DNA of 64,000 nucleotides from an uncultured Clostridium sp. (GTDB lineage Bacteria > Bacillota > Clostridia > TANB77 > CAG-508): assembly GCA_900553695.1 (NCBI GenBank), contig USEM01000002.1, positions 8,471 to 72,470 on the forward strand. The letters are read 5' to 3'. Shown here one piece after another: positions 59,323-64,000 of this stretch. Numbering within the stretch: position 1 is the first letter of the stretch; every line of letters begins with the position of its first letter. The position numbers and the translations under genes were made by a program. The notes below the pieces were generated by a model that was given only the letters and a program-made list of their open reading frames with translations, was not told the origin of the DNA and made no database searches.

Positions 59323-59555
59323 ATAACACCAAATTTAGTGTTATACTATATTGTATGCAATTTAGTTGTTTTTGTTACGATAGGTCGCAAAAAAGTAGCA
59401 ATTTATTAATTACTACTTTTTTTCTTGTGGCTCCTTTGGTGAACAAGTATGCGAACTTTATACACACGAATTTTTAGCCATCTATCTTGATTTAATTTTG
59501 TTCAAATTGATAGTTTTAATTTAACATAACTTTTTATTTTTTTCAAGTTAATTTA

Positions 59556-60875
59556 TTAAAAAGGTAACTCAAATTTATTATTTTTCATTACCTTTTCTAA
59601 AACATTCTTAGATTCTACATCTAAATTAGTTAGTTGTTCAATATATTCATCTTTCATCTTATATTCTTTTGGATTCCCATATGAAGTTGTACTTAGCACT
59701 TCTACCAATCCATGATAAATTACAATTCTTAATGCTGTATCATAATTTCTAGATAATTTAGAATTCAAAGTATTATCTTCTTCCCATAAACGTATTTTTT
59801 CTATTTCTTCACTCGCTTTCCATCTATCGCCTAATGTGAAAGAATACGTATCTAATATATATTTAAATAATAAAGCTTCAATTTCCTTGAATCCATCACT
59901 TTTTATTAACATCTCAATTTTATTTTCAGAAGGATTCTCTATTTGAGAGATTGAATTATTAACGACTCTTTCATATTTTGCTTTGATATTTTCAATTATT
60001 TCTTTCCCATATTTACTCATAGAAATTAAATCTCTAAATATGTTTATATCTAATTCACATCCAGCATACTCTTCATTGCAATTGGTATAATCATATTCAT
60101 AAGTAATATATCCACTCTTTTCCAAAGTTATTTTGGCTTTCTCATAATCAAAATCATATTTTTTTGCATATTCTTTTATTTTTAATAAGTCTTCTGATTC
60201 ATCAACATTTTGTGTTCCATAATCATATGTACTACAGTCGTTTAACTGATTTATTCTATTTTCAATAAAATAATTTAAAAATAATATTTCTTCATCAGTA
60301 AATTTATTATTTATAATCATCTTTTCAAAATCTGATATTTCTTGATCTTCTATCACAAATTCACTTGTTTTCTCTGCCATTTGATTTGCTTCAGTAATAA
60401 AATCATTAAATATTTCTTTCACACCTTTTACTAAATTAGGTTTTTCTATATAATCTTTTAAATATTTAAGCAATTTATATGTCTCATCTGCATTTGGTTT
60501 AAAAGCAATATAATGGCTATCTATAAAACCTTTCATATCATTATATGTTAAATTATTCAATAATATTGGTATGAACTTTTTATTAGAACACCACACTGCC
60601 CCCATTTCATTTAAGCAAAATTCACTTTTATAAAAATTAGGTGTCAACAAAAAAATAACTATTTCTGCTACATTAAGAGCTTTTTTTACTTCATCATGAA
60701 AATTTTTTCCTAGTTGCACTCCAGTATGATATGAAGATGAATAAAAAACATTTTTTTTATTTATCCCTAATTCTATTAATGCTTCAAGAAATCTTTCTCC
60801 TATTGGTGCATCTAAAGAAGCATGGCTAATAAAAATTTTTGGCAATATATCTTCTTCCATTTGTTTTCCTTTCAT
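59556..60875 (-). CDS. TIR-domain protein with a ~290-aa uncharacterised C-terminal region
   Basis: The N-terminus reads KIFISHASLDAPIGERFLEAL...IVIFLLTPNFYKSEFCLNEMGAVW...FIPILL, which matches TIR/TIR_2 strand-helix order with a candidate catalytic Glu. No family was recognised for the C-terminus. Confidence 0.65.
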   Translation of the reverse strand: MKGKQMEEDILPKIFISHASLDAPIGERFLEALIELGINKKNVFYSSSYHTGVQLGKNFHDEVKKALNVAEIVIFLLTPNFYKSEFCLNEMGAVWCSNKKFIPILLNNLTYNDMKGFIDSHYIAFKPNADETYKLLKYLKDYIEKPNLVKGVKEIFNDFITEANQMAEKTSEFVIEDQEISDFEKMIINNKFTDEEILFLNYFIENRINQLNDCSTYDYGTQNVDESEDLLKIKEYAKKYDFDYEKAKITLEKSGYITYEYDYTNCNEEYAGCELDINIFRDLISMSKYGKEIIENIKAKYERVVNNSISQIENPSENKIEMLIKSDGFKEIEALLFKYILDTYSFTLGDRWKASEEIEKIRLWEEDNTLNSKLSRNYDTALRIVIYHGLVEVLSTTSYGNPKEYKMKDEYIEQLTNLDVESKNVLEKVMKNNKFELPF

Positions 60876-60881
60876 TACATT

Positions 60882-61841
60882 TTATTCTTCATTCCATTTA
60901 GATTCAATTGATATTATTGAAGCTGGCATTCCAACTATTTGAATATCAAATTTTAAGCTATTTTCAACATATGTAGATGCGTTGTGTATTCTAAAACTAA
61001 ATTGCCATCCTTCATCTAAATATAATTCTATGGTATTGTTACTTTTTGGTTTAAAGTCAATATTAATAATTCTTGTTGGTAATTTAGCAATAGGTATAAC
61101 AACTTTAGGTTTAGATTCTTTGCTAGCTTGATTAAGTGTTCCTCTTAAGTTATATGATTGAATTTGAGTAACTTTTTTATTATCAATACTAATCACTTTA
61201 TAGAAATCAAATTCGCCTAATAAGTATTCTACCAATTTTTTAGGTAACTCTGGATGTTCATTATAGTTTCTTCTTATTTCATTTATAAAAGCTCTTAATA
61301 AAGGAACATATACATCGCTTTCTTTATCTTCCAATTCGCTCCATTTTAATCCTTGTTCCTTTTTTGAATTTATATATTTAAATATTGGTATTATATCATT
61401 CCAATATGAATCAGAACATTTTATTCCATACCATCTTTCTCCAAAATCAAGTCTTGGACCTAATCTACTATGTTTTACTGCAAAATGGTTATGTTTTATA
61501 CTTAATCCTATTTCCCACCTTTCAGCATTCCTAATTATAATAATATCTCTAACATCTCCAACTTCACCTTCTTGATCCTTTTGCATTTTTAAAACCAAAT
61601 AATCTATGCCTTTTTCTGTAATCATTGGCTCTAAATCAAAAATTGAATATGTAGCAGATAAAGCACTGTTTTCAAATATAATCTTTGTTTCTTCATCAAT
61701 AATGTTCCAACATTCTTTAGCTGTTTCATATGTTGAATTTTTTTCGATCACCGATTTTCTGAATTTATTTATTTCTCTATTTAATGTTTCAATACAAATG
61801 TATTCATAAGCTCTTCCAAATACATTACTTTGATTACTCAT
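60882..61841 (-). CDS. Type II restriction endonuclease, probably the HaeIII-family partner of the adjacent methylase
   Basis: A 319-aa ORF immediately downstream of the M.HaeIII-like gene. It has a PD-(D/E)xK-like segment, GDVRDIIIIRNAERWEIGLSIKHNH. The family call comes from context and size. Confidence 0.5.
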   Translation of the reverse strand: MSNQSNVFGRAYEYICIETLNREINKFRKSVIEKNSTYETAKECWNIIDEETKIIFENSALSATYSIFDLEPMITEKGIDYLVLKMQKDQEGEVGDVRDIIIIRNAERWEIGLSIKHNHFAVKHSRLGPRLDFGERWYGIKCSDSYWNDIIPIFKYINSKKEQGLKWSELEDKESDVYVPLLRAFINEIRRNYNEHPELPKKLVEYLLGEFDFYKVISIDNKKVTQIQSYNLRGTLNQASKESKPKVVIPIAKLPTRIINIDFKPKSNNTIELYLDEGWQFSFRIHNASTYVENSLKFDIQIVGMPASIISIESKWNEE

Positions 61842-62844: not shown

Positions 62845-62870
62845 TTTACTTCATTTCCTTTCGTACATAT

Positions 62871-63388
62871 TTAATCGTTTAATGCATTTTTTATATCTTG
62901 ATAATTCCAATAATACGTTCCATTTTCAAAATACATCATAGCTATATGTGTTCCAATATTTCTTACCGCTTGTGGACATTTCAATTTGTCTATCTTAGTA
63001 CTATTATATAATACTATAATTTTAATTCCAGCTTCAATTGCCTTTTCACATTCATATTGAATATAACTACGATAATCAACGGAATATCCTCGAGCACAAG
63101 CATATGTATGACTATTATAACTTCTACAATATTGACATCCACCTTTTGTTATTTTATTTGTATGTTCTCCAACTATTAATACAAAAGTTTTAGAACCATC
63201 CATACGCATTTTTAATGAAGCTTTTATTGAGCAATACAAACTATTATCACTTGATGTTTGTAAACTATGTGCATCTGAAAATGATAAACTCCAATATTCA
63301 TTATTATTCCATTTATATAATTGATCCACAGCATTTTTATCATGATCAAAATCAGTCGCTATATATGTTCTTGTTCTTTATAAAGACA
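62871..63388 (-). pseudogene. TIR-like (DUF1863 / ThsB-like) gene interrupted by an in-frame TAA at codon 4. A shorter product could start at the GTG at 63329.
   Basis: The ATG at 63388 overlaps the upstream stop (TAATG). The sequence then reads ATG TCT TTA TAA AGA ACA AGA ACA TAT ATA GCG ACT GAT TTT GAT, that is MSL*RTRTYIATDFDHDKNAVDQLYKW... The segment after the stop matches the conserved first strand of DUF1863 TIR-like proteins. Confidence 0.55.
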
Positions 63389-64000
63389 TTAAAATTCCTC
63401 CTTTATTACATTCATATCTATTTTTTCTATAGAATCTTGTGTTAAAACAATTTTTATTCCTTGCTCTGATTGAAATTTACTAATACGTAATGTACATAAT
63501 ATACACTTTAAAAAATCTGTATAATTCTTATTTGATATTCCTTCTATTGTAGTAATTCCTCCTCCCAATAAAGGAATTACAATTGGTTGTGCAGCATAAA
63601 CTCTTCTTATTTCAGCCCACATTCTAATAAGTAATTGCTCATATTCACCAATTTTTATATATGCGTTATTTTGCTCATTAAAATGTGAAAATGCAAGCAT
63701 TAAAAAATCTTCATATTTAATTATTCTTCCTAAAGGATAAACATCTTTCCCCTTTACGCTCTTAGGTTTAAATAAAGAATCTTCTATTTTTGCTTCTTGT
63801 ATTCTTAATTTTAAAGAATCTATATCTGTAACATAATTATCAATCATTTTCCCATTTAAAGAATTATGTGCAATAATAACATCGTCAACTTTAGTATCAA
63901 ATCTCTCATTAAAAGGGATTATTTTTAGTCCAGATTCATTAAAAATATCTCCAACTTTTATTTCTACAGATATACCATTAATTGTTGTACTATATGACTT
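63389..64000 (-). CDS. Macro-domain-like protein, C-terminal part (ThsA-like, type II Thoeris-style). The N-terminus lies outside the window.
   Basis: The frame stays open to the window edge (...INGISVEIKVGDIFNESGLKIIPFNERFDTKVDDVIIAHNSLNG...). It has GDIF at the start, PLLGGGIT late, and ends ...KIDMNVIKEEF. It is translationally coupled to the TIR-like gene. Confidence 0.45.
   Translation of the reverse strand, partial: KSYSTTINGISVEIKVGDIFNESGLKIIPFNERFDTKVDDVIIAHNSLNGKMIDNYVTDIDSLKLRIQEAKIEDSLFKPKSVKGKDVYPLGRIIKYEDFLMLAFSHFNEQNNAYIKIGEYEQLLIRMWAEIRRVYAAQPIVIPLLGGGITTIEGISNKNYTDFLKCILCTLRISKFQSEQGIKIVLTQDSIEKIDMNVIKEEF

Follow-up and report, generated by a model that had tools for sequence, protein, structure and literature searches.

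Three stacked defence modules, one of them most likely inactive, on a small integrative island at a tRNA-Asn gene of a gut Clostridium

A defence island of 6,941 bp (25.9% GC) is inserted at a tRNA-Asn sequence of an uncultured Clostridium sp., and its right-hand 4.6 kb occupy positions 59435-64000 of the window analysed here, a 64,000-nt stretch of contig USEM01000002.1. The host is a low-GC, spore-forming bacterium of the human gut, as judged from its SpoVA genes and from the sample names. The insertion point is the 3′ end (GGAGCCA) of the tRNA-Asn sequence, downstream of an rRNA operon, and the gene order of the complete island is a 40-aa open reading frame (ORF), a 387-aa serine recombinase, a 97-aa ORF, thsA, thsB, a cytosine methylase, a restriction nuclease and a gene encoding a TIR domain followed by winged-helix-like repeats. 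Five ORFs, all on the minus strand, are contained in the window between 59556 and 64000. They are the 203 C-terminal codons of thsA, with the Macro domain (63389-64000); thsB, a TIR-like gene of the DUF1863 type that is interrupted by a nonsense codon and is probably a pseudogene (62871-63389); a C5 cytosine methyltransferase orthologous to M.HaeIII, with predicted GGCC specificity (61855-62844); a type II restriction endonuclease of the HaeIII family (60882-61841); and the stand-alone TIR protein (59556-60860). An earlier sequence-only reading had placed at these coordinates five co-oriented, tightly packed genes of a defence island adjoining core genes, and this description holds: the junctions from thsA to the TIR gene measure −1 (the TAATG overlap), 26, 13 and 6 nt. 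We propose, with a probability of about 0.8, that the island consists of three independent defence modules of known kinds carried by an integrative element, that its Thoeris module is most likely dead and that the TIR protein acts as a single-gene system.

The limits of the island were obtained by comparing occupied and empty sites. Island-carrying metagenome contigs were retrieved through the TIR product and through the neighbouring radical-SAM protein; among the loci compared, L001 to L012 carry the island, L013 and L014 are empty sites, and L015 and L016 contain a sister island. In the contigs retrieved via the TIR product the island part is identical to the window apart from one 1-bp indel. 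Beyond the window, upstream of thsA, the contigs continue with the 97-aa ORF, the recombinase and the 40-aa ORF, and then with tRNA-Asn, 5S and 23S rRNA. L013 and L014 share the flanking genes but not the island: tRNA-Asn is followed there by one or two tandem units of about 230 bp, each ending in a tRNA-like T-arm, an acceptor end and a hairpin, and then by an 85-aa core gene. The comparison sets the island edge at ...caccaaa/GGAGCCAcaag (the slash marks the edge). On L012 the island is joined on its left to a complete tRNA-Asn, ...acggGGAGCCA/tgaaatatttt, and the right junction reads caccaaaGGAGCCA/caag at window positions 59428-59434. The 7-bp core GGAGCCA, the 3′ end of tRNA-Asn(GTT), is thus present at both island ends (59428-59434, minus strand), and the non-coding right end of the island extends from the stop codon of the TIR gene to this attachment core (59435-59555, minus strand). 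Presence/absence polymorphism, GGAGCCA at both junctions and a PF00239 recombinase at one end are features of an integrative island.

The hairpin with its T-run at 59389-59423 (minus strand), which had been taken for a terminator closing the island, is chromosomal: it also follows tRNA-Asn and each 230-bp unit at the empty sites, and the island ends at 59435. The adjoining spacer (59340-59555), described earlier as slightly GC-richer, has 25.0% GC, which is below both the island (26.4%) and host DNA (29.3%). A 57-bp direct repeat (window 59378-59434; L001 732-788) was considered as an attachment-site duplication and rejected: it belongs to the 230-bp tandem unit that the empty sites already carry, so that it is chromosomal and the common core is limited to 7 bp.

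The twelve carrier loci differ by 0-1 single-nucleotide polymorphism (SNP) over the 6,941 bp of the island, whereas as many as 57 positions of the adjoining core DNA vary in the 12 kb compared. The contrast indicates that one island variant has recently spread among diverged strains. Plasmid and phage collections yielded only HaeIII-type restriction-modification (R-M) pairs at about 70% DNA identity and partial matches to TIR.

The first module has the layout of type II Thoeris. The full thsA gene encodes 272 aa (L001 3137-3955) and runs about 207 nt past the window end. Its product matches PF20016 (ThsA_Macro; E 1e-43) and the PADLOC ThsA model PDLC00413 (E 1e-68, profile positions 69-273 of 278), as well as the solved ThsA Macro structures 8v6q (E 1e-40) and 8r66 (E 4e-33). 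The N-terminus of ThsA contains a strong transmembrane segment at residues ~44-66 (Kyte-Doolittle 3.1) and a weaker hydrophobic one at residues 14-33 (Kyte-Doolittle 1.2). The ATG of thsB overlaps the thsA stop codon (TAATG), and codons 5-172 of thsB match PF08937 (E 1e-9); against the PADLOC model PDLC00427 the match reaches E 1e-78. The Macro and TIR assignments of the sequence-only reading, including that of the large TIR protein (TIR_2, E 9e-12), therefore stand in profile searches, and so does the Macro-TIR pair coupled by TAATG in a type II Thoeris layout; what had been overlooked is that thsB does not have an open frame.

Read from the TAATG, the thsB frame gives MSL-stop-RTRTYIATDFD (MSL-stop-RTRTYIATDFDHDK), the premature TAA being codon 4 (63378-63380, minus strand). 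It is present in 13 of the 13 copies, that is, in the window and in L001-L012. The inspected ThsB homologues begin MSLYRTRTYIAADFDHDK, with Tyr at codon 4; more than 1000 homologues were found, and those among the top 120 listed are mostly 170-175 aa long. The solved ThsB structure 8v6t also has Tyr at this position. In the sister island L015, with 99.4% identical DNA, TCA TAT stands where the window has TTA TAA, and thsB is intact. The lesion is accordingly a Tyr4-to-stop change, and the intact reading frame that is required for the signal is missing from all 13 copies. Because thsB stops at codon 4 in every one of them, the Thoeris module is most likely inactive here, as far as can be judged from the reading frame.

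A still functional Thoeris would need stop-codon readthrough, or re-initiation after the 3-codon mini-ORF. Coupling to thsA delivers ribosomes directly to thsB, the island, in which the TAA allele is fixed, has reached diverged strains, and no other lesion is seen in the thsB frame. The absence of further decay is nevertheless expected in any case, since the whole island varies by 0-1 SNP, and TAA followed by A is an efficient termination context. The longest uninterrupted thsB ORF is 152 aa with a GTG start; this GTG, at codon 21, is the only canonical in-frame restart, and starting there removes RTRTYIATDFDHD, the first strand of the TIR-like fold in the alignment to 8v6t. Continued expression of thsB is hence improbable, and we keep to an inactive module. 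As a separate observation, codons ~82-100 of thsB (window 63089-63145) encode a Cys-rich insertion, GGCQxCxSYNSxTYxCA, that is common to all close homologues and absent in the alignment to the solved ThsB 8v6t; it could be a metal-binding site.

The second module is the R-M pair. The methylase matches PF00145 (E 4.5e-108) and aligns with M.HaeIII (PDB 1dct) over residues 1-327 versus 1-323 with E 9e-142; 216 of 321 aligned residues are identical (67%), over the full length and including the target-recognition region. Given this identity, the methylase can reasonably be predicted to recognise GGCC. The nuclease matches RE_HaeIII (PF09556; E 3e-139) from end to end, profile positions 1-298 of 298, and PADLOC REase_II with E 4e-127, so the HaeIII type assigned to the pair from the letters is borne out. 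Both ORFs are full length and unchanged in every copy. Depletion of GGCC as a sign of R-M activity was considered and rejected: the host part of the window has 19 sites versus 26 expected and the island part 0 versus about 1 expected, counts that are too small.

The third module is the TIR protein. The longest ORF begins at 60875 and encodes 439 aa, the length reported earlier; the TIR domain is present as claimed, and gene callers and homologues agree on Met6 (60860) as the likeliest start, giving 434 aa. Its best match in the defence databases is PADLOC spbK (E 6e-32); against the PADLOC ThsB model it reaches only E 0.0017. A profile of the family retrieves SpbK (PDB 9phb) with E 3.8e-31, the closest relative of the TIR domain. 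Residues N191, E192, G194 and W197 of SpbK, which are those mutated in the study of that protein (PMC12847820), are conserved, with CLNEMGAVW here versus CLNEMGATW in SpbK, and E85, G87 and W90 (434-aa numbering) are invariant or nearly so across 39 homologues; the TIR domain thus keeps the catalytic Glu and the residues of self-association. The spbK match covers the TIR part only (PADLOC profile positions 145-283 of 308); neither the N-terminal, YonE-binding domain of SpbK nor the SpbK domain order was found in the TIR protein in the PADLOC and 9phb alignments or in the structural models. In AlphaFold2 models the whole protein has a pLDDT of 86, and residues 168-434 alone one of 88.7. The C-terminal part is modelled as two winged-helix-like repeats in tandem, each about 125 aa long. 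A Foldseek search with the whole model was dominated by TIR matches; one with the C-terminal model gave no significant match and returned weak winged-helix ones, the best being SarS (1p4x, E 0.01), followed by MarR and ScpB types.

A profile of the C-terminal region matches 228 representative proteins (clusters at 50% identity) at E ≤ 0.001. Among 20 of these matches that were checked, 17 carry TIR_2, one has a weak DUF4062 match and two are without a Pfam match; DUF4062 has been renamed NADase domain (NIR) in a 2026 preprint (10.64898/2026.09.04.749371). The winged-helix region is therefore a dedicated companion of NADase-type domains. SpbK itself is a NADase that makes ADPR and N1-cADPR; docking of its sensor domain on the phage portal clusters the TIR domains and activates the enzyme (PMC12847820). 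By analogy, we infer that the winged-helix repeats are the sensor or clustering module of a single-gene abortive-infection NADase. A literature search on anti-phage proteins combining TIR and winged-helix parts returned nothing specific, and this family is the one uncharacterised piece of the island.

The sequence-only reading had joined these genes into a composite, with the R-M pair placed inside a Thoeris-like locus, between its two TIR genes. In its strongest form ThsB and the large TIR protein would both feed the Macro effector ThsA, the R-M pair being functionally embedded. The genes are indeed co-oriented and packed with gaps of −1 to 26 nt, Thoeris loci with more than one ThsB are known, and in the sister island, too, 26 nt separate thsB from the methylase that comes after it. 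The other contexts of the same genes tell otherwise. A relative of the TIR protein with 76% identity lies on an integrase/relaxase element, with HipA and an MmeI-type enzyme as neighbours; one with 47% stands alone among core genes; one with 51% follows a KAP NTPase and closes a prophage lysis module; and further relatives are found in three uncultured Clostridia-type genomes. ThsA, ThsB, methylase, nuclease and recombinase are absent within 10 kb of the TIR relatives in all 7 other contexts, so that ThsA or ThsB accompanies them in 0 of 7. Conversely, the ThsA (272 aa)-ThsB (172 aa) cassette occurs in two other contexts, where it is followed by a 578-aa gene or by a DUF4062 gene and not by R-M, and none of the other ThsA/ThsB loci examined has an R-M pair or the large TIR protein. 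When every fetched locus was searched by tblastn with all the island proteins, they co-occurred nowhere outside the island family. The order thsB, methylase is repeated only in the sister island (L015, L016), and the adjacency is therefore a trait of the island lineage, not of Thoeris. The large TIR protein also belongs with spbK rather than with ThsB by the scores given above, and TIRs of the SpbK type make ADPR and N1-cADPR, not His-ADPR (PMC12847820). As the TIR relatives and the ThsA/ThsB cassettes occur apart in other contexts, the genes do not form one system; the composite is not supported, and we consider it very improbable. In one of the two cassette contexts, in another Clostridia lineage, a 310-aa DUF4062 protein is placed directly 3′ of ThsA-ThsB (L028 6803-7735, L029 4798-5730, L030 4925-5857).

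Several observations weigh against the three-module interpretation. The first ones concern the element. Domain searches of the recombinase with Pfam found the N-terminal Resolvase domain alone, the recombinase and zinc-ribbon domains being absent from its C-terminus, and mobility and excision of the island are putative. In most carriers, moreover, the left junction is a hybrid of the tRNA-like repeat unit and the tRNA-Asn 3′ end, and some recombination accompanied or came after integration. Others concern ThsA. In type II Thoeris the TIR protein makes His-ADPR, which is bound by the Macro domain, and the membrane-anchored effector acts (preprint 10.1101/2024.01.03.573942). The ThsA of the island has one transmembrane helix above the hydropathy threshold versus two in type II Thoeris. 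When the contact residues of His-ADPR (numbering of Bacillus amyloliquefaciens ThsA) were mapped through the 8r66 alignment, 3 of 6 were found to be kept (D100, N133, S194), the others being replaced: Q135 by Lys, R240 by Thr and Y277 by Thr. R240 is the residue that contacts the histidine carboxylate of His-ADPR (preprint 10.1101/2024.01.03.573942), and the GITT motif holding the Thr at its position is invariant in the 3 aligned sequences of the ThsA subfamily. Since the R240, Q135 and Y277 contacts are replaced, the ligand of this subfamily, and with it the signal, may differ from His-ADPR.

Lacking the Arg by which the histidine of His-ADPR is held, the ThsA pocket might admit another TIR product. 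One might then imagine that, in an island devoid of functional thsB, the SpbK-like TIR protein took over as signal generator for ThsA in a rewired, hybrid Thoeris, an idea that we regard as extremely improbable. A weaker version is that the whole ThsA subfamily, with its invariant GITT, responds to a TIR signal other than His-ADPR.

The last objection concerns the TIR gene, which could be an incomplete system. The two relatives nearest to it outside the island (76% and 73% identity) each have an overlapping, translationally coupled upstream gene of 300-305 aa that is absent from the island, and these two upstream genes are 52% identical to each other; a relative with 44% identity has an overlapping upstream ORF of 237 aa. 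On this evidence the island gene would be an orphan, a non-functional fragment of a two-gene system whose other member is a protein of about 300 aa with a Cys-rich C-terminus. The 47% relative, however, stands alone and the 51% relative follows an unrelated KAP NTPase; the presumed partner has no match to a defence family, in Pfam or in PADLOC; and the island gene is a full-length ORF that keeps all the conserved TIR residues. A non-functional fragment is thus unlikely, if worth keeping in mind, and a TIR protein acting alone is preferred. The Cys-rich protein of about 300 aa (CKHCGK...YCSPQCRNQ) is encoded at L017 9084-10001 and L031 315-1217 and may be the partner gene missing from the island.

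The TIR gene is frameshifted in a minority of strains. Its poly-A tract at 60751-60758 (minus strand) has the length A8, which keeps the 434-aa product in frame, in the window and L006-L012; in L001-L005 it is A7, the frame is shifted and the assemblies call a 387-aa remnant. Within the island, L001-L005 and the window are otherwise identical. For the intact 434-aa product 38 contigs are recorded; for the 387-aa remnant the cluster record gives 7, and 13 were read. A TIR NADase of abortive infection would be costly, and the tract could be a programmed phase-variation switch: assemblies of several independent studies contain the two alleles on otherwise identical islands, the tract lies early in the gene, ahead of most of the TIR domain, and the flanks of A7 are of at least two kinds that differ slightly (L001 and L002). 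A single ancestral frameshift with clonal or recombinational spread fits these facts equally well, however, and 8 bases are short for high-rate slippage. The tract is absent in the relatives with 47-73% identity and is an in-frame A7 in the 76% relative, and the AT-rich window has 15 runs of 8 or more A or T. Because the tract is not conserved and such runs are frequent, we attribute the polymorphism to ordinary mutation by slippage in an AT-rich gene; a designed switch seems quite unlikely.

We infer all the biochemical activities of the island proteins, which would be distributed as follows. As in characterised type II Thoeris, ThsB would on infection make an ADP-ribose-derived signal, and this signal would bind the Macro domain of the membrane-anchored ThsA, leading to a growth stop; with Tyr4 of thsB changed to a stop codon there would be no signal, and the Thoeris module would be inactive in this lineage. 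The R-M pair would methylate GGCC and cut unmethylated GGCC. In the TIR protein, by analogy with SpbK, the winged-helix repeats would recognise some component of the phage and bring the TIR domains together as an active NADase, with abortive infection as the outcome.

For annotation, the value of the analysis is that the call of a composite system is corrected to three stacked, independent modules. Of the three, Thoeris has most likely been lost already through the Tyr4-to-stop change in thsB, the TIR gene exists in frameshifted and in-frame alleles, and no copy has an interrupted R-M pair. This pattern would fit a scenario in which costly abortive-infection TIR genes decay fast while an addictive R-M pair holds the island in place. 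As the three modules are of known kinds, what is new is limited to a family member or variant and to natural loss-of-function alleles. No function has been described for the winged-helix family, which comprises 228 clusters at 50% identity and nearly always occurs in fusion with TIR, and the natural on/off alleles could be compared directly in gut isolates.

Other features of the locus deserve mention. The tandem unit of about 230 bp located 3′ of tRNA-Asn holds a 195-nt tRNA-like RNA (L014 178-372; two copies on L013, ~178-600), of which the window keeps only the 3′ core and the hairpin (59378-59434). The RNA has an acceptor stem CGACCU/AGGUCG, a D-arm, an anticodon-like arm with GUU, an insertion of about 110 nt, a T-arm with the same sequence as in tRNA-Asn and a terminator hairpin; its predicted fold has −75.4 kcal/mol (z = −6.4), and the copy number of the unit differs between strains. 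An Rfam search of the unit gave tRNA-Asn as the sole match, and ARAGORN called nothing beyond tRNA-Asn. RAGATH-7 was rejected as its identity, 18 bits versus a threshold of 112 bits being noise. At the other end of the island, the recombinase (L001 1573-2736, 387 aa; PF00239, E 3e-34) has a catalytic domain closest to CcrB, XisF and phage integrases (phrog_95), that is, to large serine recombinases. Its NCBIfam matches to CcrB and XisF are restricted to the first ~170 residues, and the C-terminal ~200 aa are coiled-coil-like. The 97-aa and 40-aa ORFs beside it have no family match.

On L012 (1-2600) the island is preceded by a rotamase, a response regulator and a lone 5S rRNA with tRNA-Asn; the other contigs show the arrangement 23S-5S-tRNA-Asn-repeat, and the downstream core genes are the same as on L012. 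The upstream context of L012 could be due to rearrangement between tRNA-Asn copies or to an assembly join. L006 (14411-15293) and L012 (from 15911) contain, between nifU and pyrG, an additional PDDEXK_2 and HTH_Rpn_C gene pair, a recombination-promoting nuclease of the Rpn type, that is absent from the window (equivalent site near 53145-53290) and from L001. Finally, none of the five genes contains an in-frame CGG codon, as had been observed, and this had been taken as adaptation of the island to the CGG avoidance of the host. The host uses 0.43 CGG per 1000 codons (6 of 14,087 in ORFs elsewhere in the window), so that 0.62 CGG would be expected in the island genes by chance, with P(0) = 0.54, and the argument has no statistical weight. 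The in-frame CGG nearest to the island is in a 164-aa ORF at 56979-57473 (minus strand), which has the highest local GC (35.6%) and no Pfam match.

Each part of the island has a known counterpart from which it differs in some respects. The element resembles SCCmec (CcrB), XisF elements and tRNA-targeting islands in the catalytic domain of the recombinase, the presence/absence polymorphism, the short common core at the ends and the defence cargo; unlike in SCCmec (CcrB) and XisF elements, its recombinase has 387 aa and a coiled-coil-like C-terminus without recognisable recombinase or zinc-ribbon domains. With type II Thoeris of B. amyloliquefaciens Y2, which signals through His-ADPR, the first module shares the two-gene layout, the ThsA Macro domain, the N-terminal membrane segment and the coupled TIR-like ThsB, whereas here thsB stops at codon 4, 3 of 6 His-ADPR contacts differ (including R240 to Thr) and ThsA has one clear transmembrane helix. 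The R-M pair corresponds to the HaeIII system (M.HaeIII and R.HaeIII, GGCC), its methylase being 67% identical, its nuclease matching the profile end to end and its genes being adjacent and co-oriented; it differs in residing on a small integrative island of a Gram-positive, AT-rich host and in that its specificity is predicted. The third module, like SpbK, the TIR NADase of Bacillus subtilis ICEBs1 that is activated by the SPbeta portal protein YonE, is a single gene on a mobile element and has the same TIR residues, but its domain order is reversed, with the TIR domain N-terminal, and its putative sensor region is formed by winged-helix-like repeats unrelated to SpbK's N-terminal domain.

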